From Burkholderiaceae bacterium (GTDB lineage: Bacteria > Pseudomonadota > Gammaproteobacteria > Burkholderiales > Burkholderiaceae_C), in contig JAYRKJ010000005.1 in the NCBI GenBank assembly GCA_041905785.1, positions 188,319 to 252,318 on the forward strand: a DNA stretch of 64,000 nt, given 5' to 3'. The notes below the pieces were generated by a model, which saw only the letters and a list, made by a program, of their open reading frames with translations, had not been told where the DNA came from and made no database searches. Positions 897-57,718 of this stretch are shown piece after piece. A program made the position numbers and the translations under genes. Numbering within the stretch: the stretch's first letter is position 1; every line of letters starts with the position of its first letter.

Positions 897-1183
897 AGCC
901 ACTCATCCGGCGGGACTGGTGGCTCAAGAGCCTGTCCGGCACCGTGCTCGGCGCGACCCTGGCCCTGGCGCTGGCCGGCCTTTGGGCCTGGTGGGGTCCG
1001 GGCGGCATTCGCGCGCAGGACAAGGTGCAGTTCACGATGTGGATGATTGCGCCGCTGTGGATGCTGGCGCTGTCGGCCGTGTACTTCATGCGCTCCGGCG
1101 CGCGGGCGCTGCTGCTGCTGCTGGTCCTGAACGGGCTGGCTCACGGCGCCCTGCAGTGGACAAAACAGGCGGCGGGCGCATGA
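893..1183 (+). CDS. small 3-TM membrane protein of PepSY-TM iron-release operons
   Basis: ATGA overlaps with both neighbours; MKPLIRRDWWLKSLSGTVLG..., hydrophobic. Confidence 0.65.
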   Translation: MKPLIRRDWWLKSLSGTVLGATLALALAGLWAWWGPGGIRAQDKVQFTMWMIAPLWMLALSAVYFMRSGARALLLLLVLNGLAHGALQWTKQAAGA

Positions 1184-2808
1184 AGGTCTCCAGCGATCTG
1201 ATCAAGGTGCACAAGCGCCTGCACACCTGGGTCGGCATCACGGCCGGCTGGCTGTTGTTCGTGGCCTTCTTTGCGGGCGCTTTGACCATGTTCAAGGAAC
1301 CCCTGGACCGCTGGGTCCGCGCCGGCAGCGAACCCGTTCGCGAGGCCTGGGCGCAGCCCCTGGACGATGGGCTGATCCCCGAAATGCTCGCCCGCCAGCC
1401 CAAGGCCGGGGCCGAGTTCACCGTGCATCTGCGTCCGGCCGAGCACCGCCCGGCCCCCATCAGCGGGCCGCACCAAACCGATCCAGAGGGCCCCGGCGCG
1501 TCCGTCGCGCCCTGGGTGGCTGGCCGCAACACTGCCGGCCGGCTGCAGATCTGGCAGCAGCCGCCTTCGGTGCTGGGCGAGCTGGTGGACCTGCTCCACC
1601 GCACCGGCGGCGTGCCCGGCACCCTGGGCGACGAGCATCTGGGCGTCTACCTGATGGGCGTGGCCGCGGTGCTCTACTTCCTGGCCCTGGTGTCCGGCGT
1701 GGTGGTGCTGCTGCCGACCCTGGTGAAGGACTTCTTCGCCATCCGGCCAGGCGCCAACCGCAAGCGCTTCTGGCTGGACTTTCACAATGTGCTGGGCATC
1801 ACCAGCCTGCCCTTTCACGTGGTGATCAGCCTGACCGCCATCGTGTTTGCCTTTCATGACCAGTTCTATGGCGCCCTGCGGGAGGTGGTCTATGGCAGGC
1901 AGCCGATGTTTTCGCCGCCGGCGCTGAGCCTGCCGGTGCAGCCCGGTGCACCCCTGCTGCCCCTGTCACAGCTGCTGAAGCGCGTCCAGGACGAGGCGCC
2001 CGGCTTCGAACCCACCGAGCTGCTGTTCATGCGCAGCACCGGTCCGCGCGCCATGGTCCGCGTGGCCCTCTCGCATCCCGACGCGCTGGTCCACGGGCCG
2101 CGCAGCGCCTACCTGCTGCTGCAGCCGCAAACCGGCGAGCTGCTCAACAGCAGCATGCTGCCCGGCCGGGAAAGCCCCTGGAGCCTGCCCGTCAACACCT
2201 TTTTTGCCCTGCACTTCGGCAGCTACGGCGGCGAGACCATCCGCTGGACCTATTTCGTCATGGGGCTGATGGGCGCCGCGCTGTTCTACACCGGGAACCT
2301 GTTGTGGCTGGAGTCGCGGCGCAAGCGCCAGCCGGCCGGCCAGCCGCAGCCGGAGCAGGCCCGCAGCGTGCGCTGGCTGGCGGCCGGCACGGTGGGGACT
2401 TGCCTGGGCTGCCTGCTGGGCGTGCTCGCGGCGCTCGCGGTGGGCAAGCTGAGCCGGGGCGGCGGTGCGCATGCCGAGCCGCTGTACCTGTGCGCCTATT
2501 ACGGCACCTGGCTGGCCTGCCTGGCCTGGAGCTTCTGGCGCGGAGCGGCGCGCGCAGCACCGCTGCTGTTGAGCGCCTGCACGCTGGGCGCCTCGCTGCT
2601 GCCGGTGCTGTCGCTGCGCAGCGGCAGCGGGCTGCTGGCAGGCCTGACGGGCGGGCACTGGGGCCTATGGATGGTGGACGTCGTCGCGCTGCTGGCAGCC
2701 CTGGCCTTTGCGGCGATGGCCTGGCGGACGCGGCAGCGCGTGCGGCTGGCGGCTCCGGACACGATCTGGTCCCTGGCCGGCCCGGTGGCGCAAGCCCAGA
2801 GGACTTGA
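1180..2808 (+). CDS. PepSY-associated TM helix protein (FoxB-like ferrisiderophore reductase)
   Basis: LHTWVG, LHRTGG, WLDFHNVLG and LHFG His-bearing TM motifs; ATGA-coupled start at 1180. Confidence 0.85.
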   Translation: MKVSSDLIKVHKRLHTWVGITAGWLLFVAFFAGALTMFKEPLDRWVRAGSEPVREAWAQPLDDGLIPEMLARQPKAGAEFTVHLRPAEHRPAPISGPHQTDPEGPGASVAPWVAGRNTAGRLQIWQQPPSVLGELVDLLHRTGGVPGTLGDEHLGVYLMGVAAVLYFLALVSGVVVLLPTLVKDFFAIRPGANRKRFWLDFHNVLGITSLPFHVVISLTAIVFAFHDQFYGALREVVYGRQPMFSPPALSLPVQPGAPLLPLSQLLKRVQDEAPGFEPTELLFMRSTGPRAMVRVALSHPDALVHGPRSAYLLLQPQTGELLNSSMLPGRESPWSLPVNTFFALHFGSYGGETIRWTYFVMGLMGAALFYTGNLLWLESRRKRQPAGQPQPEQARSVRWLAAGTVGTCLGCLLGVLAALAVGKLSRGGGAHAEPLYLCAYYGTWLACLAWSFWRGAARAAPLLLSACTLGASLLPVLSLRSGSGLLAGLTGGHWGLWMVDVVALLAALAFAAMAWRTRQRVRLAAPDTIWSLAGPVAQAQRT

Positions 2809-2811
2809 CCG

Positions 2812-4137
2812 ATGCCCGTCGACGTCCCCTCGTCCGTCATGGCCTGCCTGCAGTCCGTGGCCCCGGCGCATGAGCCCGGCTCTGCGCCCTGGTGGCAGGC
2901 CGTCTCGCGCGTGGGCACACCGCTGCGATGGGCCGGCGAGCCTGGCGAGCTTGGGCAGAGGGAGCTGCTGTTCCTTTGGCGCCAGCCACCCAGCGCGCCG
3001 GCGCCGGCCGTGGTTTGTATCGACGTGGACGGGCATACGCCCCATCCCACCGCGGGGGCCACCCGCATGCGGCGGCTGCCGGGGACCGATGTCTGGTACT
3101 GGCCCACCCGCTTGCCCGAGAACTGGCTGGGCAGCTATGCCTTCATGCCGATCGCCCCGAACTGGCCAGCCGAACCCGCCACGGCCCCCGAGCGGCGCGC
3201 ATGGTGGATGGCATCCATGCAGGCGTTTGGCCAGGCTGATCCCTTCAGCCCGCATCCCGCCGCGGCGGATGGCTGGGGGCAGCCCAGGGCGGTGCTGCGC
3301 GAGGGCGTCGGCCTGTCGGTGCTGAGCGGGCAGGGCGGCCCCGACAGCGGCGGCATCCCCGCCGGCCGCCTTCGCCAGTGGACCTGGGCCAGCCGCCTGC
3401 TGGGCTGCACGCGCTCGGTCTGGCTCCATCAGACCGTGGGCCCCGCGCCAGCGTCCGGCCAGCGCGCGTGGGTGCTGCTGCTGGATGGCCAGGCCTGGGC
3501 CGGTCCCCTGCAGCTCTTCCCCTTGCTGGACCGCATGACCGCACGGCGGCAGCTGCCCGCCGCGAACTACCTGGCCATCGACGCCCGGGACCCGGCGTCG
3601 CGTCGGCAGGACATGGCCTGCCAGGACCGCTTCTGGCAGGCCCTTCATGAGGAGGCCTGGCCTGCCGCCTGGCGCGTCGCGCTGCAGGACGGCTCGGTGT
3701 CGGGGCCCTCCGCCTGCGAAACGCCCTGCCTGGTGGCCGGCCAGAGCCTGGGCGGTCTGGCGGCCAGCTACGCCGCCTTGCATTGGCCGCGCCGCTACCC
3801 GGCACTGCTGAGCCAGTCCGGCGCCTTCTGGTGGCCCGAGCTGGACGAGGGGCCGGAACACGCCTGGCTGATCCGGCAGGTCCGCGGCGGGCTGGGACGG
3901 CGGCTGAACCTGCGGGCACGCTTCCAGTACGGCGAGCGCGACCCCGAGGACATGCAGCGCTTGAGCCGGCAGATGGCCCAGGCCCTGCGTTCCCAAGTGC
4001 TCAGCCCGGCGGCGGTGCGCGCCCAGCAAGTGAAGGGCGGTCACGACTGGACGTGCTGGCGCGAGGCGCTGCTGGCAGGTCTGGCCGACTTGCTGCCGAC
4101 CCTGTGCGAGCCTCGCGGCCCCTGCCGCACTGAATGA
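2812..4137 (+). CDS. fes: ferric catecholate (enterochelin) esterase
   Basis: GQSLGG nucleophile motif, SQSGAFWW, GGHDWTCW; DUF3327-like N-terminus; directly upstream of mbtH and NRPS. Confidence 0.88.
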   Translation: MPVDVPSSVMACLQSVAPAHEPGSAPWWQAVSRVGTPLRWAGEPGELGQRELLFLWRQPPSAPAPAVVCIDVDGHTPHPTAGATRMRRLPGTDVWYWPTRLPENWLGSYAFMPIAPNWPAEPATAPERRAWWMASMQAFGQADPFSPHPAAADGWGQPRAVLREGVGLSVLSGQGGPDSGGIPAGRLRQWTWASRLLGCTRSVWLHQTVGPAPASGQRAWVLLLDGQAWAGPLQLFPLLDRMTARRQLPAANYLAIDARDPASRRQDMACQDRFWQALHEEAWPAAWRVALQDGSVSGPSACETPCLVAGQSLGGLAASYAALHWPRRYPALLSQSGAFWWPELDEGPEHAWLIRQVRGGLGRRLNLRARFQYGERDPEDMQRLSRQMAQALRSQVLSPAAVRAQQVKGGHDWTCWREALLAGLADLLPTLCEPRGPCRTE

Positions 4138-45613: not shown

Positions 45614-46711
45614 TCAGGCCCCTCCCATGCGCCGCAGGCTGCCGCGCAGCAGGACCAGGAACCAGGGCGCCCCCAGCAAGGCACTGAAGACGCCCACCGG
45701 AACCTCAGCCGGCATGGCGACCGTGCGGCCCAGCGTGTCCGCCGCGAGCAGCAGCAAAGCCCCGCAGACCATGGACATGGGCAGGGTCTGGCGCAGGTCC
45801 GCCCCCACCAGCTGGCGCGCCAGATGGGGCGCCATCAGTCCCACGAAGCCGATGCTCCCGCACCAGGCCACGGTCAGGGCGCCAAGCAGCGCGACCAAGA
45901 CAACGACACGCGTGCGCAAGCCGGAAACGTCCACCCCGACGTGGGACGCCGCCGCTTCGCCCAGGGCCAGGGCGTTCAGCGCCTGCGCCATTTGCCTTGC
46001 ATTCCATGCGGCCAGCACCAGGGCCAGCAGCATCACGCCAGCCATGGTCCAGTTGGCGCCAGCCAGCGACCCCAAGGTCCAGAAGCTGATGGCGCGCAGC
46101 TGCTCGTCGCTGGCGAGATGGCTGCAAAGGCCAACCAGCGCACCGCACAGCGCCTGCAAGGCCAGTCCAGTCAGCAGCAGACCGGCGATCGAGCCCGGTG
46201 CCAGCCAGCGCGCACAGCGCTCCAGCGTGAAGCACACCAGCAGCGCACCGCCAAAGCCCGCGGCAGGCAGCAACCAGAGCCGTGCCACCGGCGGCAGGGC
46301 GGCTGATGCAGCCGAGAACAAAGTCAGGCAAAGCGCGACGGCCGCTGCTGCACCGCTGCTGATGCCCAGCAGCGCCGGGTCGGCCATGGGATTGCGAAAC
46401 AGGCTTTGCGCCAGCACGCCGCCCAAGGCCAGGGATCCGCCCACCGCCAAGCACAGCAGCAGCCGCGGCAGGCGCAGCTGCCACAGTACATACGCCGAGC
46501 CGCTGCGCTGGGCAGCGTCGCTGATCCAGGGGGGCTGCAGCCAGTCGTCCAGCCGGGCCGGCAGCGCGCCGAGCTGTGCACAGGCCAGGGCGGCGCACAG
46601 GGTCAGCAGCAAGAGCAGCAGCAGGCGTTTGCGCGGATCAGCGCGCCGCAGGCGTGCCACCACGGACAGGGGGTGAGAGCCTCCATGCCCTAGGGTCAGG
46701 TCTTGCCGCAT
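45614..46711 (-). CDS. hmuU: heme ABC transporter permease (FecCD family)
   Basis: LRLPR, FRNPMADPALLG, FWTLGSL, IGFVGLMAPH, EVPVGV. Confidence 0.9.
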   Translation of the reverse strand: MRQDLTLGHGGSHPLSVVARLRRADPRKRLLLLLLLTLCAALACAQLGALPARLDDWLQPPWISDAAQRSGSAYVLWQLRLPRLLLCLAVGGSLALGGVLAQSLFRNPMADPALLGISSGAAAAVALCLTLFSAASAALPPVARLWLLPAAGFGGALLVCFTLERCARWLAPGSIAGLLLTGLALQALCGALVGLCSHLASDEQLRAISFWTLGSLAGANWTMAGVMLLALVLAAWNARQMAQALNALALGEAAASHVGVDVSGLRTRVVVLVALLGALTVAWCGSIGFVGLMAPHLARQLVGADLRQTLPMSMVCGALLLLAADTLGRTVAMPAEVPVGVFSALLGAPWFLVLLRGSLRRMGGA

Positions 46712-46718
46712 GGTGGCT

Positions 46719-47573
46719 TCACCGCTGATGCAGGGCCTCCGCCAGGCGCGGAAGCAGCTGGGGAAGGCGGGGGCCAAAGCCCAGCAGGGCCAGGGCATCA
46801 AAGCTTGCCACGCGGCGGACGCGGCCGGCCGGCGTCTGGGCAAGACCTGGCACCTGGAGCAGGCGGTCGATGCCGCCGGCGGTCTGCAGCCCCTCCGTCG
46901 TCGTCAGGATGACCTCGGGCGCTGCCGCCACCGCCGCCTCCGGGGTGAGCTGCTTGTAGCCTTGCGCCTCCGCCAGGGCATTGCGGGCGCCAGCGTAGCC
47001 GATGACAGCATCCGCCGCGGTGGCACTGCCGGCGATGCGCAGCTGCGCCATGTTGTGCGCCAGCACGAACAGCACGCGCGGCGGGCGCTGTTCTCCCATG
47101 CTCAGTTGCCGAACCCTGCTCAGGGCCTGCTGCCAGTCGGCGCGCAGGGTTCGAACCAGCGCCTGCGCCGCGGACTCCCTGCCGAGCAGTGCGCCGATGC
47201 GTTCGACGCGAGCGAGCAAGCCTTCGAAGCGATGCTCGGAACGCAGGGTGTGCAGCGCAATGCCCGCGGCCTCCAGCTGCCTAAGCGCTGCCGGGGGACC
47301 GGCATCCTCGGTGGCCAGGACCAGGGTGGGCGCCAGTGACAGCAGGCCCTCGGCCGACAGCGTCCGCATATAGCCCACATCCGGCAGCGCCATGGCTGCC
47401 GGGGGAAACACCGACGTGCTGTCCCGCCCGACGAGCAAGGATTCGCAGCCCAGGGCGTAGACGATTTCCGTGAGCGCTCCGCTGACGCAGACCACGCGCG
47501 GCGCAGTCGCCGCGTCGGCCAAGGGCGGCAGTCCGAGGGCACATGCGGCCAGCAGGTGACGCCGGCTCAGCAT
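46719..47573 (-). CDS. hmuT: heme ABC transporter periplasmic binding protein
   Basis: LTEIVYALG..LVGRDSTS, VGYMRTLSAEG, LLGFGPR. Confidence 0.92.
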   Translation of the reverse strand: MLSRRHLLAACALGLPPLADAATAPRVVCVSGALTEIVYALGCESLLVGRDSTSVFPPAAMALPDVGYMRTLSAEGLLSLAPTLVLATEDAGPPAALRQLEAAGIALHTLRSEHRFEGLLARVERIGALLGRESAAQALVRTLRADWQQALSRVRQLSMGEQRPPRVLFVLAHNMAQLRIAGSATAADAVIGYAGARNALAEAQGYKQLTPEAAVAAAPEVILTTTEGLQTAGGIDRLLQVPGLAQTPAGRVRRVASFDALALLGFGPRLPQLLPRLAEALHQR

Positions 47574-48655
47574 GCGCCAGCCTCCGCCGCGACGTCGCGC
47601 AGGCTCTCCAGCAACTGCCGCCACTCGCAGCGTTCGGCCTGGCCGGGCTTGCGCTCGCCGAAGAACTGGGCGATCAGGGCGTTCTGTTCGTCGAACAGTT
47701 CCAAGGAGCACACCAGCCCGTCCACTGTCGGCTTGCGCACCAGCCATGCCGAGGCGATGTGGTCCTCGCGCAGATGCAAATTGAAGCCCTCGTCGAGCAC
47801 GTTCAGCCACGGGCCCATGACGGCCACCCGGCTCACCGGTCCGCTGTGGATCTGGATCATGCCGGGGTTGCCCACGAAGCACATGATGGGCACCGCTTCC
47901 TGCGCGGCCCGTGACAGCAGTTCCTGGGCGCTGGCACGAGGCAACCGATCGACGAACTCCGGAGCCGCCAGGCGCAAGGCCTGCGTGCGGCTCAGCCCAA
48001 AGCGTTTGAGCAGGCCGAAGAACTCGTGGGTGTCGCGCAGCGAGGCCCAGGCCCTGCGGAATGCGGTCAGATCCACGCTGGCATCCGCTGGCTCGGGCGG
48101 TTCGCGCCAGGCCTCGCCGGGCGTCATGCCGGGTTGCTGCTCGTTGGACGCAAAGGTCAGCACCAGTTGCTCGTAGGCCTCCAAGGCACTGTCGGGGCGC
48201 AGGAACACCTTGTGCAGGGCCTGCCCGGCGGCGTCGAAGAACTGGAGGCTGCGCTGCACAGCGCCGTCGGCCAGACGCTCGGAGACGGCAAAGCCGTGAG
48301 CCCACTGCGCATAGAAAGCCCGCAAATCGATCGCGCCGCCCAGCACCAGGCCCACAGGCCCCTGGTGACTGGCCCTCGCGTAGACGCCGACCTTCTCATG
48401 GACGCAGCTCTCATTGCGGGTCAGCGCCATCAAGGGGCCCAAGGGCTCGAGGGACTCGATGAGGGTGCTCCAGTCCTCCCTCAGCCGCCTGGCCTGCAGG
48501 GGAGACTCCTGGCTGGCGAAAGCGCCGCAGTGCGCGGCGATCAACTCAGCCTCGCTGATCTGCAACTGCCTGGCGATGTCCCGATGGCGCTCGGGGCGTG
48601 CTTGCTGACGCGCCGCGGCGAAGGCCTGGCGCAGCTGCTGGTGGCTCGCTTGCAT
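47567..48655 (-). CDS. hmuS: heme trafficking/degrading protein (HemS/ChuS family)
   Basis: ALTRNESCVHEK, RSLQFFD..G.A.HKV, FVGN.G.IQIH, FNLHLRED. Confidence 0.93.
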   Translation of the reverse strand: MQASHQQLRQAFAAARQQARPERHRDIARQLQISEAELIAAHCGAFASQESPLQARRLREDWSTLIESLEPLGPLMALTRNESCVHEKVGVYARASHQGPVGLVLGGAIDLRAFYAQWAHGFAVSERLADGAVQRSLQFFDAAGQALHKVFLRPDSALEAYEQLVLTFASNEQQPGMTPGEAWREPPEPADASVDLTAFRRAWASLRDTHEFFGLLKRFGLSRTQALRLAAPEFVDRLPRASAQELLSRAAQEAVPIMCFVGNPGMIQIHSGPVSRVAVMGPWLNVLDEGFNLHLREDHIASAWLVRKPTVDGLVCSLELFDEQNALIAQFFGERKPGQAERCEWRQLLESLRDVAAEAGAC

Positions 48656-48674
48656 GATGGGTTCGCTCCTGGGG

Positions 48675-50852
48675 TCAGTAGTCGGCGCGCAGGGAGACCT
48701 GCAGTTGGCGCCCCGGCGCCGTGAAGGCGTCCAGGGTCGGGCTGCTGGCGGCGATGCCGCGCACATCGCTCCAGCGCCAGTACTTCTTGTTGCCGACGTT
48801 GCTGAGGAATGCCGCTGCGCGAAGCGTCGTACTCAGGCGGCAGCTCAGGCCGAGGTCGAGCACGTCGTGGCTAGGTGGCAAGAAATTCGCGGCACTGCTG
48901 CTGCGGCCGGCCTTCTTGGCCGCCACATGCTGCCAGGCGGCCTGCAGCTCCCAGTCGCCCCGAGTCCAACGCAGCGCGGTGCTCAAGCGCGTCGGCTGCA
49001 CCGTGTCCAACGGCGTGTCCACGCCGGCCCGCGTGCTGTCGCCGCGCGTATCCGCCAGGGCGGCGCTGAGCGACAAGCCATTCGTCGGCTGCCAGATCAG
49101 CCGCGCATCAAAGCCGCGGATGCGCGCCTGCGTCAGGTTGATGTACTGGAACACCAGCGGGTCTGCCGGCGTGCCGCTGCCCTTGACCACCTCCTGGCTG
49201 ATGAAGTCTCGGTAGCGATTGCGGTAGACGCTGAGCTGCCAGCGCAGCTGCTCGTGAAGCGTCCCGCGCAGCCCGATTTCCACGCTGTTGGCATGCTCCG
49301 GTCTGAGCTCCGCATTCCCGATGCTGCGGTAGCCCTGCGCTGGATTCGCGAAGCCGTTGTTGACCTGGTCGGGCCTTGGTGCCCGAAAGCCCTGCGACCA
49401 CTGCAGGTAGGGCTGGAATGCCGCATGCAAGCGCCAGATCAGCCCCAGCCGCGGCGTCACCGCACGGTCAGACAGCGACACCACGGGGCCCGCGGTAAAG
49501 CCCTCCGGCGAGGGCTTGAGGGCGTAGTGCTCCAGACGCAGGCCGGGGATCAGGCTGAAGTCCGCGAGCTCGATTTCGTCCTGCACAAAGGCGCCCGCGA
49601 GTCGGTAGCGGGTGTCCGGGAAGGGCTTGTTCGGGAAACTCTCGCCGGGCGGCGGCACGGTGCCGTCTCGCAGCGCGGTGATTTTGTTGCTGCTCATCTC
49701 CAGCCCATAGCTCAGGCGCTGCCCCGGCAGTTGCGTCTGCGCCAGCGCGGCAAAGCCCAGCAGCTGTTCCCTGTAGAAGCCATCGCGGGTGCGGTCCGCC
49801 GCGCTGTAGCGGTCTTCTGTGGAGAGCTGGCGGGTCTTGGACGCCTGCACATAGACCTGGGTGCTCAGCGTCTGCAGCCAAGGCGCGTTCAGGTCTTCGT
49901 AGCGGTGCTCGATGGACAGACGCGCGCGGTCCAGCTCGTCCTGGGCTTGCAGGCCGATGACGGCGGTGGGCGTGGTCTTGTCGACCACCGCAGCGTTGGC
50001 ACTCAGGACCTGTGTGTCGGTGACACGGTGGCGCGCCTCCAGCGTGATTTGCAGCTGCTGCTGTTCATTGATTTTCCGGCCCAGCTTGCCCAGCACGCTG
50101 TGCGAGCGGATGTCTGCAGGATTGGCTGCCGTGCGGCCGACGTTGGCCGCCTCATTGCGCCCCATGTTCTTGAGCTCATGGCCCCGGCGCGCCACGCCAG
50201 CCAGCAGGCCCTGCCAGGGTCCGGACGCCGCAGCCACGCCCGCACTGAGCTTGATGGATCGATCGACCGAGGAGACCGACGCCGCAGCAAAACCGCCCAG
50301 CGAACTGCCTTGCAGCAGCAGGTCTTCGGGCGCCAGTGTGCGCAGGACCAGCGCCCCTCCCAGGCCATCGCTGCCGAACTGCGCGGAAGCCGGGCCGCGC
50401 AGGATTTCCGCACCGGCCAGGAGATCCATGTCGATGTAGTCGGCACGCCCGCTGGCAAACGCGCCAAAGCTGAAGCTCTGCGGCAGACGGATGCCGTCCA
50501 GGCTCATCAACACCTGGTTGCCCTCCAGGCCGCGGATATTGATGCCCTCGTTGCCCGCTCGGCCCGTTGACGCGCCTGCAGCAGTAAAGCGCGAGGCGCT
50601 CGCGCGCACGGCAACGTCGACTTCCTGGTCCAGCAGGTCCTTCAGGTCGCGAGCATCACGCTGCTGCAGGCGCTTGCGCTCATAGACGGTGACCGTATTG
50701 GGCACGGCCTCCGTGCTGCGCTCAGTGCGCGTGGCGCTGACGGTGAGTTCACCGAGCCGGCTCGGTTCGGCCGGTGTCGCCAGCGATGAGGCCGGCGCGA
50801 GAAGGAATGGGAGCGCGGAAAGCGCCAGCGCGACCGGGGTCTTGCGCAGCAT
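48675..50852 (-). CDS. hmuR: TonB-dependent heme/hemoglobin receptor
   Basis: TVSATR TonB box, NIRGLEGNQV, GFRAP and NAELRPE (FRAP/NPNL-type) motifs. Confidence 0.92.
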   Translation of the reverse strand: MLRKTPVALALSALPFLLAPASSLATPAEPSRLGELTVSATRTERSTEAVPNTVTVYERKRLQQRDARDLKDLLDQEVDVAVRASASRFTAAGASTGRAGNEGINIRGLEGNQVLMSLDGIRLPQSFSFGAFASGRADYIDMDLLAGAEILRGPASAQFGSDGLGGALVLRTLAPEDLLLQGSSLGGFAAASVSSVDRSIKLSAGVAAASGPWQGLLAGVARRGHELKNMGRNEAANVGRTAANPADIRSHSVLGKLGRKINEQQQLQITLEARHRVTDTQVLSANAAVVDKTTPTAVIGLQAQDELDRARLSIEHRYEDLNAPWLQTLSTQVYVQASKTRQLSTEDRYSAADRTRDGFYREQLLGFAALAQTQLPGQRLSYGLEMSSNKITALRDGTVPPPGESFPNKPFPDTRYRLAGAFVQDEIELADFSLIPGLRLEHYALKPSPEGFTAGPVVSLSDRAVTPRLGLIWRLHAAFQPYLQWSQGFRAPRPDQVNNGFANPAQGYRSIGNAELRPEHANSVEIGLRGTLHEQLRWQLSVYRNRYRDFISQEVVKGSGTPADPLVFQYINLTQARIRGFDARLIWQPTNGLSLSAALADTRGDSTRAGVDTPLDTVQPTRLSTALRWTRGDWELQAAWQHVAAKKAGRSSSAANFLPPSHDVLDLGLSCRLSTTLRAAAFLSNVGNKKYWRWSDVRGIAASSPTLDAFTAPGRQLQVSLRADY

Positions 50853-50938
50853 GTGCGTGTCCTTGAAGAAACGGCACGGGCTGGCAGGGGCTGGCTGGCT
50901 GGTGCAGATGCAGAAAGAGGGTGAATCTGCATTGTAAA

Positions 50939-50953
50939 TGCAAATGATTTGCA
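50939..50953. promoter_or_regulatory. Fur-like box upstream of hmuR
   Basis: Perfect 7-1-7 inverted repeat TGCAAAT-G-ATTTGCA, 86 nt upstream of hmuR ATG. Confidence 0.75.
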
Positions 50954-51008
50954 ACTGCAATGCGAACCCAGGGACGGTCGCAGCCAGGGCCGGGCATTGG
51001 CAAGGTGT

Positions 51009-52545: not shown

Positions 52546-53193
52546 TCATGCGCGGGGCGAGGTACTTGCCAGCAGCGCGCACACCTCCTCGTCGCTGGTT
52601 TGCTCGAAGTGCTCGTACCACAGGCTCACGGCCCTGAAGGGCTCTGGGGTCGACAGGCACAGCACGTCATCGGCAGCACAACGCAGGGCCTCGCAGGCCG
52701 CTGCGGACGCCACAGGCACGGCCACCACGACCCGCTCCGGCGCCAGCCGGCGCACGGCCTGGACGGCTGCGCGCATCGTGCAGCCGGTGGCCAGGCCATC
52801 GTCAACCAGGATCGCCACGCCGCCCTTGAGCTCAGGAAAGGGCCGTTCGCCTCGGTACAAGCGCTCGCGGCGGCGCAGCTCCTCGAGCGCCGTTTGCGTC
52901 ATGGCCTGCACGGCGCCGTCAGAGACTGCCGCGCTGCGCAGCAGTGGCTGGTCCAGCACCCGCAGCCCCGGGCCGGCAAGGGCGCCGACAGCGTACTCGG
53001 GATGGCTGGGCAGGGCCAGCTTGCGCACCACCAGCACGTCCAGCGGCAGCTGCAGCTCGCGCGCAGCCTCATAGGCCACCGGCACGCCGCCGCGCGGCAG
53101 CGCGAGAAGGAAGCTTGCCGGCCGGTTCGCATAGGCGCTCAGCAGGCCTGCCAACTCCCTGCCCGCCTGCCGACGATCCTGGAATCGCGCCAT
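52546..53193 (-). CDS. phosphoribosyltransferase-family protein
   Basis: FQDRRQAGRELA, LALPRGGVPVA, ILVDDGLATG PRPP motif. Confidence 0.88.
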   Translation of the reverse strand: MARFQDRRQAGRELAGLLSAYANRPASFLLALPRGGVPVAYEAARELQLPLDVLVVRKLALPSHPEYAVGALAGPGLRVLDQPLLRSAAVSDGAVQAMTQTALEELRRRERLYRGERPFPELKGGVAILVDDGLATGCTMRAAVQAVRRLAPERVVVAVPVASAAACEALRCAADDVLCLSTPEPFRAVSLWYEHFEQTSDEEVCALLASTSPRA

Positions 53194-53202
53194 GGACGTC
53201 CC

Positions 53203-53361
53203 CTAGTGCCGGGTGCTCTGGGTGCTCCCGGTGCTCGTCTGGGAGTGCATCCCGCCCGGCGTCGAGATGCAGTACATCACCTCCCTGGACATCACTTCCT
53301 CGATCTTGGCGTCCGGCCCTCGGCCCGCCGCCACGGCACGCATCACTTCAGAAACTTGCAT
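53203..53361 (-). pseudogene. internally deleted CBS-domain protein remnant (52 aa; not in supplied ORF track)
   Basis: AAGGAG RBS then MQVSEVM/RAVAAGRGPDAKIEEVMSREVMYC and an unrelated tail. Confidence 0.6.
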
Positions 53362-53889
53362 GGTTCACTCCTTTGTCGGGTCAAGCTGCTTGATCCGCGA
53401 GGAAGTCGGCAAGCCACGTACCGAACACCGCCGTGGGATTGCCATGCGCCAAATTCAGCGACGCCCGCTGCGCGCCGGCCCGGCCTGGCATCCCTGCGCA
53501 CAAGCCGCGCTAGGCTGAGGCAGGAGCGGCAGCCATTGCAGCACTGTTTTCACCATAGCACCGCAGGCGTCGCTTTCCAGTTCGAAGGCCAGAGCACGGA
53601 CGCGGTGCCCACCGCCTGATGCCCAAGCCGTGTCCCGGCAGGTGGCCGGCCCGCTCAGCGGCCATCGGCTGCGATGATCCCAGAAGCCTCATGGCAATGC
53701 CCGTGGCCTGCGACGTTTCGAGGCCGGCTTGTCGTCTGCGCATGCTTGTCGCCGAGAACATGGACATTCCGGATTCGCCAGGGGCCGTTGGATCTATGCT
53801 TTGCGCCATAGCTGCCGCCTGATGCGGTCCGTCCCGGACGACTCGTTCGCCAGGCCACGGACGCACAGAGCGCAGCAAGGGAGCGTTCT

Positions 53890-54570
53890 ATGGACTCATT
53901 GCCCCAGCCTGCCCGCATCGACCGTTGGCAGAAGAGCCGCCAGAAGCTGTTCAAGACCGTACCCGAGGGCGGCAAGGTCATTCAGTACCTGGGCAAAGAG
54001 TTTCTGGTCTACCCGAATACCTTCTGGCCCTTTGCCGACAGCCAGCCGCTGGTGCGCAGCATGCGTGTCAATGCGGGCGAGAGCGTGCTCGACGTGGGCA
54101 CCGGATCCGGGGTCATCGCGATCTTCGCGTGCTACCGCGGCGCCTCCAAGGTGACGGCGGTGGACATCAACCCGGCGGCGATCAAGAGCGCAAGGCACAA
54201 CTCGCGGCTGCACGGCTTCGAAAGAATCATGACGGTGAAGCGATCCAACCTCTTCGACGAGCTCGATGGCGAGCAGTTCGATGTGATCACCGCCAATCTG
54301 CCGTTTCGCAACAAAGCTGCCCACGATGTGGTGGCCCAGTCCCAGTGGGACACCGATTTCCAGACCAACACGCGCTTCTTCCAAGAGGTAGATCGGCATC
54401 TGAAGCCGGGCGGGCGCATCTACTTCGCGCACGCCAATTTCGGAGCCGTTGAAGAGGTGCGAAAGCTGGCCAAGTCGGCCGGATTCACGGTGCGCGCCCT
54501 GGCCCGTTCGCCCATGGCCCAGGCGGGAGGCAAGCAGTTCCTTGCCTTCGTCATGAAGAGGTCTTGCTGA
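53890..54570 (+). CDS. class I SAM-dependent methyltransferase (HemK/PrmC-like)
   Basis: VLDVGTGSG, VDINP, FDVITANLPF (NPPY/F-like). Confidence 0.9.
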   Translation: MDSLPQPARIDRWQKSRQKLFKTVPEGGKVIQYLGKEFLVYPNTFWPFADSQPLVRSMRVNAGESVLDVGTGSGVIAIFACYRGASKVTAVDINPAAIKSARHNSRLHGFERIMTVKRSNLFDELDGEQFDVITANLPFRNKAAHDVVAQSQWDTDFQTNTRFFQEVDRHLKPGGRIYFAHANFGAVEEVRKLAKSAGFTVRALARSPMAQAGGKQFLAFVMKRSC

Positions 54571-54594
54571 TAGTCGCTGTCAGGACGGCGTCCC

Positions 54595-55845
54595 ATGAGC
54601 GAGCTGCTGGCCACCATCAGGCGCTTGCGCAAGGTACAGCGTTCGGACTTGAGGCTGCGCGTGCGACGCGTGGCAGTGATGCTGACCAGCTCGCGCTCCG
54701 GCTCGACCTTGCTCAAGGACGTGCTGAGCCGACATCCGGACATCGCCTCACTGGACGGCGAACTCGAGCCCTTGCTGGTGCTGACCGAGAATGGCTTCCG
54801 CTTCAACTCAAGCAGCGATGCCATTGCCGAGCTTGCCAATCACGAGGAGTTGGGCGACCAGCTGATGGGCGACCTGACCCTGCCCAGTACGCAGCTGCCG
54901 ACCAAGGCGGAACTCAGACAGCGCTGGGAACGCCGCTTGCTCCTGCAGTTTCCGAGCTTGTTTGCCGAGCCGGCGAGCTATCGACGCCTGGGCCGGGCCC
55001 TGGACACGGCGCTGGCGCGGATCGCCGGCTGCACTGCGCACGACGAGGACGCGCTGCAACGCATGATGCTGGACGCGGTCTTCCGCCAGGCGTTTCGCCA
55101 AGAAGCCTGGCGCATGCGCTACTACGACGGGCTCGGCGGTGCGGGCCCAGGGCAGGGCTTTGACGAGCCTTGCAAGATCGAGGAGCCGCCCTTCGTGCTG
55201 CCTCGTTTTTTCCGCCGACCTTTCGCCGAGGAAGATGTGCAGAGCAAGGTGCTGCTGTTCAAGACGCCCTCCGATGCCTATCGCATCGGCATGTACGAAC
55301 AGTTGTTTCCCAATGCCCGGATTCAGTACCTGCACCTGACGCGGGGCTACGCGCAGTCGGTCAACGGGCTGATGGACGGCTGGCTGTCCGCCGTCGGCTT
55401 CTTTGCCCACGACCTGGCGCGCAGTGGCGTGCAGCTGGCGATTGCGGGCTACTCGGACGCCTGCGCCTTTGGCAGGCGATGGTGGAAGTTCGACCTGCCG
55501 CCCAACTGGCACGACTTCACGCGCGCCAGCCTGGAGGAGGTGTGCCTGAATCAATGGCTGTCCGCGCACCGGGAAATCCTCGCCAGCGGCGTGAGTGCCC
55601 TGCGCATCGCCTTCGAACAATTCCTGGCGCAGCCGGCGCGCGTGATGGATGCCATCACGGATCACCTGGACCTGCCGCCGTTGCCCGTCCCCGCCAAGCT
55701 GCCGGTCAAGATGGCCACCGAAGCGCCTTCCGAAGGACGCTGGCGCAAGCGTGAGGGGCAATTGCTGGCGCTGGCCCGCCGCGAAGAGGTTCGAGGCATG
55801 ATGGAGAACCTGGGCTATCGCATGCAGGCGGAGGATTGGCGATGA
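54595..55845 (+). CDS. sulfotransferase-family protein
   Basis: SSRSGSTLL (5'-PSB), LHLTRGYAQSVNG (3'-PB R..S), LLFKTP. Confidence 0.78.
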   Translation: MSELLATIRRLRKVQRSDLRLRVRRVAVMLTSSRSGSTLLKDVLSRHPDIASLDGELEPLLVLTENGFRFNSSSDAIAELANHEELGDQLMGDLTLPSTQLPTKAELRQRWERRLLLQFPSLFAEPASYRRLGRALDTALARIAGCTAHDEDALQRMMLDAVFRQAFRQEAWRMRYYDGLGGAGPGQGFDEPCKIEEPPFVLPRFFRRPFAEEDVQSKVLLFKTPSDAYRIGMYEQLFPNARIQYLHLTRGYAQSVNGLMDGWLSAVGFFAHDLARSGVQLAIAGYSDACAFGRRWWKFDLPPNWHDFTRASLEEVCLNQWLSAHREILASGVSALRIAFEQFLAQPARVMDAITDHLDLPPLPVPAKLPVKMATEAPSEGRWRKREGQLLALARREEVRGMMENLGYRMQAEDWR

Positions 55846-56660
55846 ACCGTCGATTGGTGGTCCCCTTCCTGATGGGGCAGCGACGCGAGGGTCTGGCCCG
55901 AGTCAGCGAGCTGGACGATCAGCGCTGGGAAGTGCTCGCTGTCCCCGGCTGCGAGGCCGCGCGGATCGACGACACGAATGAGAAGATCAGCTGCATGGCC
56001 GCGATCTACGCCAAGCTGGCTTGCCGGGTCAAGGCTGCCATCGAGCGCGACGAAGTGCCCATCTGCATTGCCGGCGACTGTGTGTCGACACTGGGCATGC
56101 TCGGCGGCCTGCAGCAGGCGGGCAAGGCGCCGGAGCGCATTCTCTGGCTCGATGCCCATGGCGATTTCCACACCTGGGCCACGACCCAGACCAAGTACGT
56201 AGGCGGCATGCCGCTGGCCATGCTGGTGGGGCGGCCGGATCGGCGCCGCGGTGGCCGGGACGCGAGCGAGGCGATGCGCTGCACGATAGGCGTGAGCCCC
56301 TATCCCGAGCCCCAGATCGTGCTCAGCGATGCACGGGACCTCGACCCGGGGGAGAAGGAGGCCCTCAGCGAATCCGGCATCGTCTGTTGCCCGTTTGACG
56401 AGATATTGCAGCACCTCCGGCCCAGCGAACGGCTGTACATCCATTTCGACACCGACGTGCTGGACGCGGAATCCGAGATGCCAGCGCTCAAGTACCACGT
56501 CAAGGCCGGGCCACGGGTGGCCGATGTGGCCGAGCTGTTCCGGCAGCTGCGCGACCACAACATCGTGTCGGTCTCGGTGTCGGCCTGGCATGAAGAGCTG
56601 GACGAAGGCAACCGTGCCGCGATGACCTGCCTGAGGCTGCTGAATCAATTGATCAACTAG
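55842..56660 (+). CDS. arginase/ureohydrolase-family protein (GDC variant)
   Basis: AGDC, WLDAHGDF, IHFDTDVLD metal motifs; ATGA overlap with sulfotransferase. Confidence 0.85.
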   Translation: MNRRLVVPFLMGQRREGLARVSELDDQRWEVLAVPGCEAARIDDTNEKISCMAAIYAKLACRVKAAIERDEVPICIAGDCVSTLGMLGGLQQAGKAPERILWLDAHGDFHTWATTQTKYVGGMPLAMLVGRPDRRRGGRDASEAMRCTIGVSPYPEPQIVLSDARDLDPGEKEALSESGIVCCPFDEILQHLRPSERLYIHFDTDVLDAESEMPALKYHVKAGPRVADVAELFRQLRDHNIVSVSVSAWHEELDEGNRAAMTCLRLLNQLIN

Positions 56661-56898
56661 CCCCGGATCGTGGCGGTGCAGGCTCCAAACCAGCAGACCT
56701 GAGTCGGCAGACCTCGGTGGGGACTTCGAGACATCGGTGTGTCCCCCGCCCCCGTCGTCAGGCATCAGCCCGGGTCACTGCGGCCCTCCCTGCCGGTTCA
56801 TTTGCCTTGGATCAGCTCTTTGCAGGACTTCACTTGCGGATGCTGCACTGCAACATCAACATGACAGGACAGTGTCGAAGCACGTGGAGGCGCAAGTC

Positions 56899-57123
56899 AT
56901 GGGCACCATTTCCAAAGAACTTTTTCTTGAGTCCCGCATCGGCGAGCTGGTCGAACTACCTCGCTGCGGCACCGCCCTTGAGCTGCCCTGGGTCTACGAC
57001 AGGGTGGCCGAAGACATCTGCGCCATGGCGAGTTCCGGCAAGGTGGAGGTGATTGCGCGCCAGGTGCAGCAAGTTCAGGGCGAGCCCTTGATCACGCATC
57101 TGGCATTTCGTCGACTGCTCTGA
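56899..57123 (+). CDS. hypothetical protein, 74 aa
   Basis: GGAGG RBS before ATG; protein-like composition. Confidence 0.6.
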   Translation: MGTISKELFLESRIGELVELPRCGTALELPWVYDRVAEDICAMASSGKVEVIARQVQQVQGEPLITHLAFRRLL

Positions 57124-57274
57124 CGGCTGCAGCGGCGATCGCGGTCGGCAGCTGACGTTCGCGCCGACCCGCGAGCTTGACGCCCTCGTCGGTGCGTGCG
57201 GCCTGGCTGCGTCATTCCCGCTTCACGCCAGGATGGTCTGATGGAGGGCTGACCTTCAACTCAGCATCCACGAA

Positions 57275-57718
57275 GTGCATTCCCTTCTTGTACCCCAAGC
57301 GCTTGCTCAGCCTGAGGAAGCCAGAAAGCATGAGCGCGTGAGCTTCTTCCTCCTGCCTGTCAGACGCGAACAGATCCCGGTGTGGATCTTCGTTCCGCCG
57401 GGACTTGCCCATGGCGTGGCCGCGCTGGTCATGAACTTGAGCGAGGGCGGCGTCCAGGTGTTTGCACCCGGCGGCGTGGCATGGGGTACCGGCCCCTTGA
57501 TGCTGCACCTGCTGGACGGTGCAGAGGAGGCGACCGCCAGCCGACACTTCAGCACCCGCGTGCGGCGTCTCTGGAAGAAGACCGTCTCCCACAGCGGGGA
57601 TCTGCATGGCCTGGCCTTTGACGACGAGAACCCAGCCGTTCGCGCCTTTCTGGCGCGGCGCCGTCCCGACCCCCTGGCCGGCCAGTGGGTCCGGTGCATC
57701 ATCGAACCCATCGTCTGA
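57275..57718 (+). CDS. PilZ-domain protein
   Basis: RKHER (RxxxR) and NLSEGG (D/NxSxxG) motifs; start uncertain. Confidence 0.72.
   Translation: MHSLLVPQALAQPEEARKHERVSFFLLPVRREQIPVWIFVPPGLAHGVAALVMNLSEGGVQVFAPGGVAWGTGPLMLHLLDGAEEATASRHFSTRVRRLWKKTVSHSGDLHGLAFDDENPAVRAFLARRRPDPLAGQWVRCIIEPIV

Follow-up and report, generated by a model that had tools for sequence, protein, structure and literature searches.

The window analyzed here, a 64,000-nucleotide (nt) stretch of a Burkholderiaceae contig, carries a 2.8-kb cassette of three genes whose products are predicted to be a HemK-like methyltransferase (MT), a sulfotransferase (ST) of the type that uses 3'-phosphoadenosine-5'-phosphosulfate (PAPS), and an arginase-fold hydrolase (ARG) in which a metal-binding histidine is replaced by cysteine. 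We conclude that the three genes form one functional unit, because they have been kept together through rearrangement, through gene fusion, and in sequences of very different base composition. With somewhat more conviction than doubt, we read the trio as a self-contained cytoplasmic pathway, dependent on S-adenosylmethionine (SAM) and PAPS, that would act on a free arginine-like α-amino acid and cleave its guanidino group after this has been modified.

Conservation and coupling of the three genes

An initial annotation of the window, made from the sequence alone, described three genes on the same strand, separated by a 24-nt gap and then joined by an ATGA overlap, and the coordinates of the open reading frames (ORFs; Table 1) agree with that description. 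The gap between MT and ST comprises positions 54571 to 54594, and the overlap of the ST stop codon with the ARG start codon is, as far as can be judged from the sequence, a translational coupling. The length of ARG, 272 amino acids (aa), is counted from this ATG; in the ORF listing it begins further upstream, with a TTG codon at position 55836. The cassette was said to be isolated by spacers of ~530 and ~240 nt, and these were found to be 528 nt upstream of MT and 238 nt downstream of ARG, both measured to small ORFs (52 and 74 aa, respectively), and the upstream distance to the start of the phosphoribosyltransferase gene at 53193 is 696 nt.

Relatives of the cassette were collected by a pattern scan with two exact ST peptides over one genome per species (GTDB, 185,579 species). 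The scan returned 212 ST relatives, a number that is a floor for close relatives and is silent on distant ones, and the counts of related loci given here refer to the 80 loci that were kept. On the basis of tblastn comparisons, MT, ST, and ARG occur in the same order in 76 of the 80; two of the exceptions (L037 and L044) are contig ends, and the other two (L013 and L029) truly lack MT. The latter, from an Oxalobacteraceae isolate and a metagenome-assembled genome (MAG), respectively, consist of ST and ARG, and in L013 a hybrid kinase gene directly abuts ST. The 4-nt overlap of ST and ARG was present in 74 loci, with an inferred ARG start at the overlap of ATG in 60, GTG in 9, TTG in 3, and ATA, which is not a start codon, in 2, and the spacing between MT and ST ranged from -17 to +32 nt. 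Almost all of the host taxa are Burkholderiales of soil, rhizosphere, and freshwater, and they include at least 10 named genera (Janthinobacterium, Duganella, Massilia, Rugamonas, Pseudoduganella, Undibacterium, Solimicrobium, Roseateles/Pelomonas, Rubrivivax, Rhodoferax, Vitreoscilla, and Chitinimonas, together with one 'Burkholderia'). The distribution is patchy within the genus of the window, where two of eight species possess the trio. Among 400 genomes sampled evenly across the class, no further full-length ST orthologue was found, only partial matches, which were not accompanied by MT or ARG in the short loci returned.

The genes beyond the trio vary between lineages, and the arrangement itself extends to more distant sequences. 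A sister family is again ordered MT-ST-ARG, with identities of 53%, 46%, and 49% for MT, ST, and ARG, respectively, and in one genome it is located between map/glnD and rpsB-tsf. On a metagenome contig with 29% GC (L107, Logan SRR31655997, positions 935 to 3700), MT and ARG are fused into a single 526-aa protein that contains NLPF in its MT portion and is Cys-type in its ARG portion, and the gene directly following the fusion encodes an ST with 35% identity along the whole protein. The conserved order, the coupling, the sister family, the fusion, and the variation of the flanks together exclude a chance adjacency of the three genes. The initial annotation had named a lack of joint conservation as evidence against its own reading, and this objection clearly falls away. 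It also did not recognize the trio as a described system, and our literature search found no description of the MT-ST-ARG trio or of N-sulfoarginine pathways.

Two further observations concern the sampled loci. The neighbors of the fusion on L107 encode proteins of 252 and 271 aa without a Pfam match. In addition, trio ST sequences of 50 to 54% identity were encountered on contigs of 42 to 46% GC that had been binned to two Candidatus Kerfeldbacteria MAGs (L021 and L037) and a Woesearchaeota MAG (L031); L021 and L031 carry the whole trio, and L037 is without MT and ends inside ARG. These contigs may be mis-binned low-GC Burkholderiales sequences. Finally, when the three proteins were compared with the PADLOC defense models, ST and ARG gave no match and MT gave a domain-level match to mad2 only.

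Features of the three encoded proteins

ARG matched the Pfam Arginase family (PF00491) at E 9.5e-20 and scored 75 bits against TIGR01229, the cut-off of which is 227.6. Its AlphaFold2 model (predicted local distance difference test, pLDDT, of 92) was aligned by Foldseek with arginases at E ~1e-15 and template-modeling (TM) scores of 0.75 to 0.82, and with DcsB (6lug) at a TM score of 0.80. An alignment of 37 family members was used to define residue conservation. The equivalent of arginase His101, the first Mn ligand, is Cys80, which belongs to an invariant G78-D79-C80 (AGDC in place of GGDH). The remaining Mn ligands, Asp124, His126, Asp128, Asp232, and Asp234, correspond to D104, H106, D108, D203, and D205, respectively, each of which is invariant, so that five of the six ligands of a canonical arginase are retained. 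His141, the proton shuttle, is replaced by Gly121 within a YVGGM segment where arginase has NIHGM (Y119, G121, G122, and M123 being invariant), and Glu277, which binds the guanidinium group, is replaced by Ala248, which is conserved to at least 90% and precedes two invariant residues, Trp249 and His250. The residues that bind the α-amino and α-carboxylate groups of the amino acid are kept: the RD-x-DPGE motif (RDLDPGE in the window) is represented by invariant R165, D166, D168, G170, and E171, with P169 not invariant, and Ser137 corresponds to invariant Thr117. ARG therefore has the fold, the DAHGD and D-x-D metal motifs, and the amino-acid binding motif in common with canonical arginases and agmatinases of PF00491, from which its family differs in the invariant His101-to-Cys exchange and in the conserved His141-to-Gly and Glu277-to-Ala exchanges. 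The initial annotation had described an arginase fold with GGDH changed to AGDC and without the histidine of GNLHG, and both exchanges proved to be invariant in the family. The three substitutions and the score below the TIGR01229 cut-off rule out a canonical arginase. The public name 'arginase family protein' accordingly carries a risk of misannotation, since three residues needed by arginase are absent and the name is no proof of arginase activity.

The breadth of this type of active site was examined by a HMMER profile scan of 1.84 billion cluster representatives, which gave 80 clusters at E ≤ 1e-30, and a residue table was compiled for the best 149 representatives (50% identity clusters). 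In these 149, the His101 position is Cys in 143, the His141 position is Gly in 103 and Asp in 33, and the Glu277 position is Glu in none. Judged by these residues, ARG belongs to a large and essentially unstudied 'Cys-type' clade of arginase-fold proteins, of which, to our knowledge, DcsB is the only characterized member. DcsB is the N-ω-hydroxy-L-arginine amidinohydrolase (EC 3.5.3.25) of D-cycloserine synthesis and does not accept arginine; the title of one of its structures (9ixe, 'without oxidized Cys86') identifies Cys86 as a noted active-site residue. Both hallmarks of the DcsB type, Cys at the His101 position and TxTxYLGGM, were found in ARG by alignment of the profile with 6lug and in the residue table. 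More distant Cys-type relatives (~255 aa; P0242, P0244, P0247, and P0254) sit in unrelated gene contexts, so the link to MT and ST is specific to the trio subfamilies.

ST matched Sulfotransfer_3 (PF13469) at E 3.5e-12. Three elements make up the parts that can be aligned at the sequence level with the ST domains of CurM and OLS: the 5'-phosphosulfate-binding loop, in which ILTSSRSGSTLL of ST aligns with ILSSPRSGSTLL of OLS and CurM; the 3'-phosphate-binding segment LLFKTPS...YLHLTRG (K-x-PS...YLHLTR); and a C-terminal FE-x-FL-x-x-P motif (FEQFL..P). The loop of ST reads SSRSGST, and R34, G36, S37, and E56 were invariant among 24 sequences, which upholds the earlier assignment of a sulfotransferase with a PAPS motif. 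The AlphaFold2 model (pLDDT 81, predicted TM score 0.85) gave the CurM ST (4gbm) as the top Foldseek match (8e-6), together with TPST1/2, Stf9, and Stf1, at probabilities of 0.98 to 1.0 and E values from 8e-6 to ~2e-3. The TM scores normalized to the query were low (0.26 to 0.37) because ST contains ~150 extra residues (roughly 60 to 215) that form a helical insertion between the PAPS-binding elements. The closest characterized matches by sequence were weak (NCBIfam NoeE, E 0.004; PDB sequences, E 0.42). On the basis of the motifs and the model, we consider ST a genuine PAPS-type sulfotransferase.

The source of PAPS was apparent in many of the related loci. A gene for adenosine 5'-phosphosulfate (APS) kinase (TIGR00455 at E 4e-72) adjoins the trio in 26 of the 80. 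At least three arrangements were seen, with the kinase gene downstream and convergent, immediately upstream, or at a greater distance, and this adjacency supports a real PAPS dependence of ST, as far as gene context can. The initial annotation had noted that neither a PAPS synthase nor a scaffold enzyme was adjacent; this is correct for the window but does not hold as a property of the system. In the window's genome the APS kinase is encoded on another contig, downstream of cysN (G000:C38:35635-36081). APS kinase was found in all 28 further trio-bearing genomes tested and in 6 of 11 relatives that lack the trio. Beside the trio, the APS kinase is accompanied in 17 loci by a flavoprotein with an FAD/NAD(P)-binding domain (PF13454). 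In the window's genome, cysN, the APS kinase gene, and a convergent PF13454 flavoprotein gene lie together away from the trio (G000:C38:34203-36686; L092 8030-10685), and the flavoprotein/APS kinase pair is also present in members of the genus without the trio (G003 and G006). We rejected this flavoprotein as an N-oxygenase of the trio, since the pair exists away from the trio and in genomes devoid of it; the pair is conserved, and the flavoprotein belongs with the APS kinase.

MT matched the MTS family (PF05175) at E 3.9e-19. Further profile matches, to PRK14968 (5e-29), PrmC (7e-22), and hemK_rel_arch (4e-21), were all under the equivalog cut-offs, with 101 bits versus 162 for PRK14968, 78 versus 199 for TIGR03534, and 75.5 versus 87 for TIGR00537. 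The alignment with TIGR03534 begins at profile position 54, and the 226-aa protein is without the N-terminal helical, substrate-binding domain of PrmC. The best PDB matches were an apramycin N-methyltransferase/release-factor glutamine methyltransferase entry (3.5e-11), GenN, PrmA, and HemK. SAM motif I reads VLDVGTGSG, motif IV reads NLPF, a variant of NPPY whose N, P, and F are each shared by at least 98% of 77 sequences, and the family has a conserved N-terminal segment of its own, R-x-D-R-W-Q-x-S-R. A HemK-like methyltransferase with NLPF, as first annotated, is thus what the profiles and the alignment describe. The (D/N)PP(Y/F/W) motif accompanies methylation of planar amino and amide nitrogens, namely adenine N6, guanine N2, and glutamine N5, and guanidino and urea nitrogens are chemically of the same planar type; the NLPF of MT is compatible with the predicted N-methylation.

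Proposed pathway and competing explanations

In the pathway that we propose, the substrate would be a free arginine-like α-amino acid that is first decorated on its guanidino group or on a group closely derived from this. MT, with its NPPY-type motif, would N-methylate the guanidino group, ST would sulfonate it using PAPS from the APS kinase encoded next door or elsewhere, and ARG would cleave the decorated group, so that ornithine or one of its derivatives is released together with a small N-methylated, sulfated product derived from urea or guanidine. Hydrolysis is placed last because of the analogy to DcsB, where modification precedes hydrolysis and arginine is not taken, and because the loss of the equivalents of His141 and Glu277 would keep the enzyme from consuming the arginine pool. 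Since His101 is lost in addition to these two residues, ARG should accept a modified substrate only and leave cellular arginine untouched, and the replacement of Glu277 by Ala-Trp-His would suit a less basic or an anionic substituted guanidine. The MT::ARG fusion suggests that the MT and ARG steps are neighbors, with ST acting first or last. The DcsB-like active site and the retained α-amino motif RDLDPGE both strengthen the link to arginine. In its outline this pathway resembles the initial annotation, which proposed a compact route to a sulfated or sulfamated, N-methylated metabolite derived from a guanidine or amine; the enzyme classes, the guanidine/arginine link, and the PAPS dependence of that proposal stood, whereas the metabolite and the substrate at its core are predictions, as is the order of the steps. 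The product may be sulfamated or O-sulfated, between which the sequence does not decide.

Several points weigh against this pathway. Methylation may be a dispensable tailoring step, because L013 and L029 are without MT. The modified-arginine substrate is suggested by analogy and is not an orthology call, given that the Glu277 position differs from that of DcsB and that the identity to DcsB is ~25%. The acceptor of ST is not readable from homology because its characterized relatives are only remote. No consistently linked exporter or N-oxygenase was found in the neighborhoods examined, and the purpose of spending both SAM and PAPS on so small a product is without explanation.

Some of the alternatives draw on a set of sensor genes that lie outside the core cassette. 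In ~34 of the 80 loci, the trio is flanked by a gene for a periplasmic binding protein of the SsuA/TauA family (TIGR01728 at E 3.5e-34) without ABC partners, and beside it are genes for a HAMP/GAF histidine kinase and a TorS/LuxQ/BarA-like hybrid kinase, with a small receiver protein also present in Roseateles-type loci (examples are listed in Table 1). At least four arrangements of the sensor genes were seen, and the genomes concerned are of the Oxalobacteraceae and Roseateles types, which represent two families of Burkholderiales. No DNA-binding output regulator was evident among them. The window's genome has no orthologue of the sensor kinases, the best match being 30% identical and confined to the catalytic core. 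Their position suggests that, in many hosts, either the trio is controlled by a signal or its product is sensed.

The trio might instead serve to detoxify or salvage guanidino compounds that are damaged or come from outside, for instance canavanine, N-hydroxyguanidines, or methylated arginines of plants or competitors. The hydrolase would then cleave a foreign guanidino or guanidinooxy amino acid, leaving a reactive amine, aminooxy, or hydroxylamine fragment for MT and ST to cap. A patchy, accessory distribution within the genus, an island-like site of slightly lower G+C, and hosts from soil, rhizosphere, and freshwater all accord with such a role, as do the activity of DcsB, the closest characterized relative of the hydrolase, on an N-O-substituted guanidine and the sensor system with its periplasmic binding protein, which fits a response to an external compound. 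We nevertheless regard detoxification as unlikely: PAPS-dependent sulfation is a costly and unusual route of detoxification for bacteria, the trio has no linked transporter, most of the loci, like the window's genome, are devoid of the sensor genes, and no sequence feature is specific to canavanine.

The same sensor genes allow a special case of the arginine-modifying pathway, in which the trio would make a diffusible sulfated signal, with the SsuA-like protein and the hybrid-kinase phosphorelay as its sensor, in the manner of quorum sensing or of an allelochemical. The recurrence of the binding protein and the two kinases at the trio in different arrangements and in both families agrees with this idea; however, ~46 of the 80 loci and the window's genome are without the sensor link, no DNA-binding output regulator is apparent, and adjacency would fit regulation of the trio by an external cue equally well. 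We therefore consider a signal synthase more doubtful than detoxification. The bolder version of it, that the three enzymes are a minimal set for producing from arginine a diffusible N-methylated, sulfated urea- or guanidine-type compound of a new class, to be sensed in many Burkholderiales, is to be read as speculation to the same degree. If it were true, it would establish a new sulfur-containing signaling or allelochemical circuit and the first function of the Cys-type arginase clade outside D-cycloserine synthesis.

Least probable of the three alternatives is a modification of peptides or proteins, in which ARG would be an OspR-like hydrolase converting peptidyl-arginine to ornithine, MT a protein glutamine or arginine N-methyltransferase, and ST a tyrosine sulfotransferase. 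Peptide arginases of the OspR type, which belong to pathways for ribosomally synthesized and post-translationally modified peptides (RiPPs), do exist within the arginase family, and the nearest families of MT (PrmC/Mtq2, PrmA, and PRMT) and the structural neighbors TPST1/2 of ST act on proteins; but ARG retains RD-x-DPGE and Thr117, which bind free α-amino and α-carboxylate groups, its PDB sequence matches at E ≤ 0.01 include no peptide arginase, no small ORF (20 to 120 aa) within 700 nt on either side was conserved in the 74 to 75 loci examined beyond lineage-specific frame artifacts, and no protease, transporter, or RiPP recognition element was conserved in the neighborhoods examined. A RiPP cluster was rejected separately, as there is no conserved precursor-peptide gene and the 74-aa ORF of the window has no homologue in any of the loci.

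The arginine-modifying pathway is open to experiment, since it requires no cofactors besides SAM and PAPS and its cassette is small and conserved in over 200 species, which makes it unusually easy, for an orphan pathway, to express in a heterologous host. Its solution would provide a function for an ST family without a characterized relative and a second function for the Cys-type arginase clade, and a new metabolite, sulfated and derived from arginine, would probably come to light in Massilia, Duganella, Janthinobacterium, Undibacterium, and Roseateles.

Flanking sequences and relation to known systems

Table 1. Positions of the cassette, of neighboring features in the window, and of sensor genes in two related loci
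Feature	Positions	Strand	Remarks
MT, 226-aa class I SAM-dependent methyltransferase	53890-54570	+	Short HemK2/Mtq2/PrmC-like type
ST, 416-aa PAPS-type sulfotransferase	54595-55845	+	PF13469
ARG, 272-aa arginase-fold metallohydrolase	55842-56660	+	Cys-type (DcsB-like) clade
ATGA stop/start overlap of ST with ARG	55842-55845	+	Read from the sequence
Conserved stretch of ~145 nt upstream of MT	53745-53889	+	Candidate promoter/5' leader with GGGAG ribosome-binding site; aligned to L004/G005
52-aa ORF between phosphoribosyltransferase gene and MT	53203-53361	-	Good ribosome-binding site
Phosphoribosyltransferase	52546-53193	-	PF00156; nearest intact upstream gene, divergent
74-aa ORF downstream of ARG	56899-57123		No Pfam match; no homologue in any related locus
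TonB-dependent receptor	48675-50960	-	From translation
Hemin-degrading ChuX/HutX-like protein	47567-48766	-	From translation
Periplasmic binding protein	within 46719-48305	-	From translation
Sensor genes, example in L089	L089 3570-8077		
Sensor genes, example in L090	L090 6608-8245 and 11284-14774		

The stretch directly upstream of MT is strongly conserved in the other trio-bearing species of the genus and is a candidate for the promoter and 5' leader of the cassette. Neither a sigma-70 consensus nor an intrinsic terminator was found in 53000-57500, and an Rfam scan of the same interval at E ≤ 1 gave no RNA family, hence neither a guanidine riboswitch nor one of another kind. At 63 to 66%, the trio has a slightly lower G+C content than its surroundings (66 to 71%). 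At the position of the 52-aa ORF, the related species G005 (L004) has an ORF of 147 aa (L004 6205-6648, minus strand) whose product looks like a CBS-domain protein. Because the N-terminus, a middle block, and the C-terminus of the 147-aa protein are all retained in the 52-aa ORF, the latter is an internally deleted, decayed remnant.

The phosphoribosyltransferase gene matches at the DNA level, within the genus, only G005:C22:69739-70365 (79% identity); in the five trio-less species of the genus the matches to it are short and weak, extending over at most ~100 nt. Since the gene is shared at the DNA level only with the other trio-bearing species, an accessory island may include the phosphoribosyltransferase gene and the CBS-like gene besides the trio. 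Further upstream, the region 46700-50960 looks like a heme-uptake cluster on the minus strand, as judged from the translations alone.

DcsB is the enzyme with which ARG is best compared. Both have the arginase fold, both are short (~270 to 280 aa), and both carry Cys in place of His101, with Cys86 of DcsB corresponding to Cys80 and the DcsB sequence NNTC (6lug, 9ixe) lying on AGDC. Both also have Gly in place of His141 within T-x-T-x-Y-L-G-G-M, where arginase has S-x-S-G-N-x-H-G-M, such that TTDTGYLGGM of DcsB lies on TTQTKYLGGM and T117, Y119, and G121 are common to the two; the other five metal ligands and the RD-x-D-x-GE α-amino motif are retained in each. The relationship is nonetheless distant (~25% identity; E 2e-12 to 3.6e-17). 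DcsB has Glu at the Glu277 position, in contrast to Ala248 with the invariant Trp249 and His250 in ARG; the residue of ARG corresponding to arginase Asn130 is His110, which also differs from DcsB. Moreover, DcsB is encoded with dcsA and dcsC-G, whereas ARG is encoded with MT and a sulfotransferase and no dcs-like neighbors were present in the neighborhoods examined. The low similarity, the loss of the Glu277 equivalent, and the lack of a dcs context rule out that ARG is a DcsB orthologue. MT, in turn, has the class I Rossmann fold in common with its best sequence matches, the HemK2/Mtq2/PrmC glutamine N5-methyltransferases, GenN, and the apramycin N-methyltransferase, and its NLPF is a variant of their N-P-P-Y-type motif IV. 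It differs from PrmC, Mtq2, and the aminoglycoside N-methyltransferases in always being encoded beside ST and ARG or being fused to ARG.

At the level of gene combinations, sulfotransferases with an APS kinase of their own occur in two pathways that start from arginine, those of saxitoxin (sxtN/sxtO) and cylindrospermopsin (cyrJ/cyrN). These are large, multi-enzyme cyanobacterial clusters with scaffolding enzymes resembling polyketide synthases (PKSs), and they are not known to include an arginase-fold hydrolase. In the synthesis of clethramycin and mediomycin by Streptomyces, a PAPS-dependent sulfotransferase and an arginase-family amidinohydrolase tailor one guanidino metabolite, and either enzyme can act first; what they modify is a giant PKS polyene, and their genes lie 670 kb apart (PMC5704753). 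The trio differs from this pair in being a tight operon that includes an N-methyltransferase, in the absence of a PKS or nonribosomal peptide synthetase, and in having a hydrolase with amino-acid-binding residues. We conclude that the closest known enzyme is DcsB, that the closest known combination of enzymes is the tailoring pair of clethramycin and mediomycin, and that the trio, rather than embodying a new principle, joins enzymes of known families into a set of three genes that is widely conserved and undescribed.

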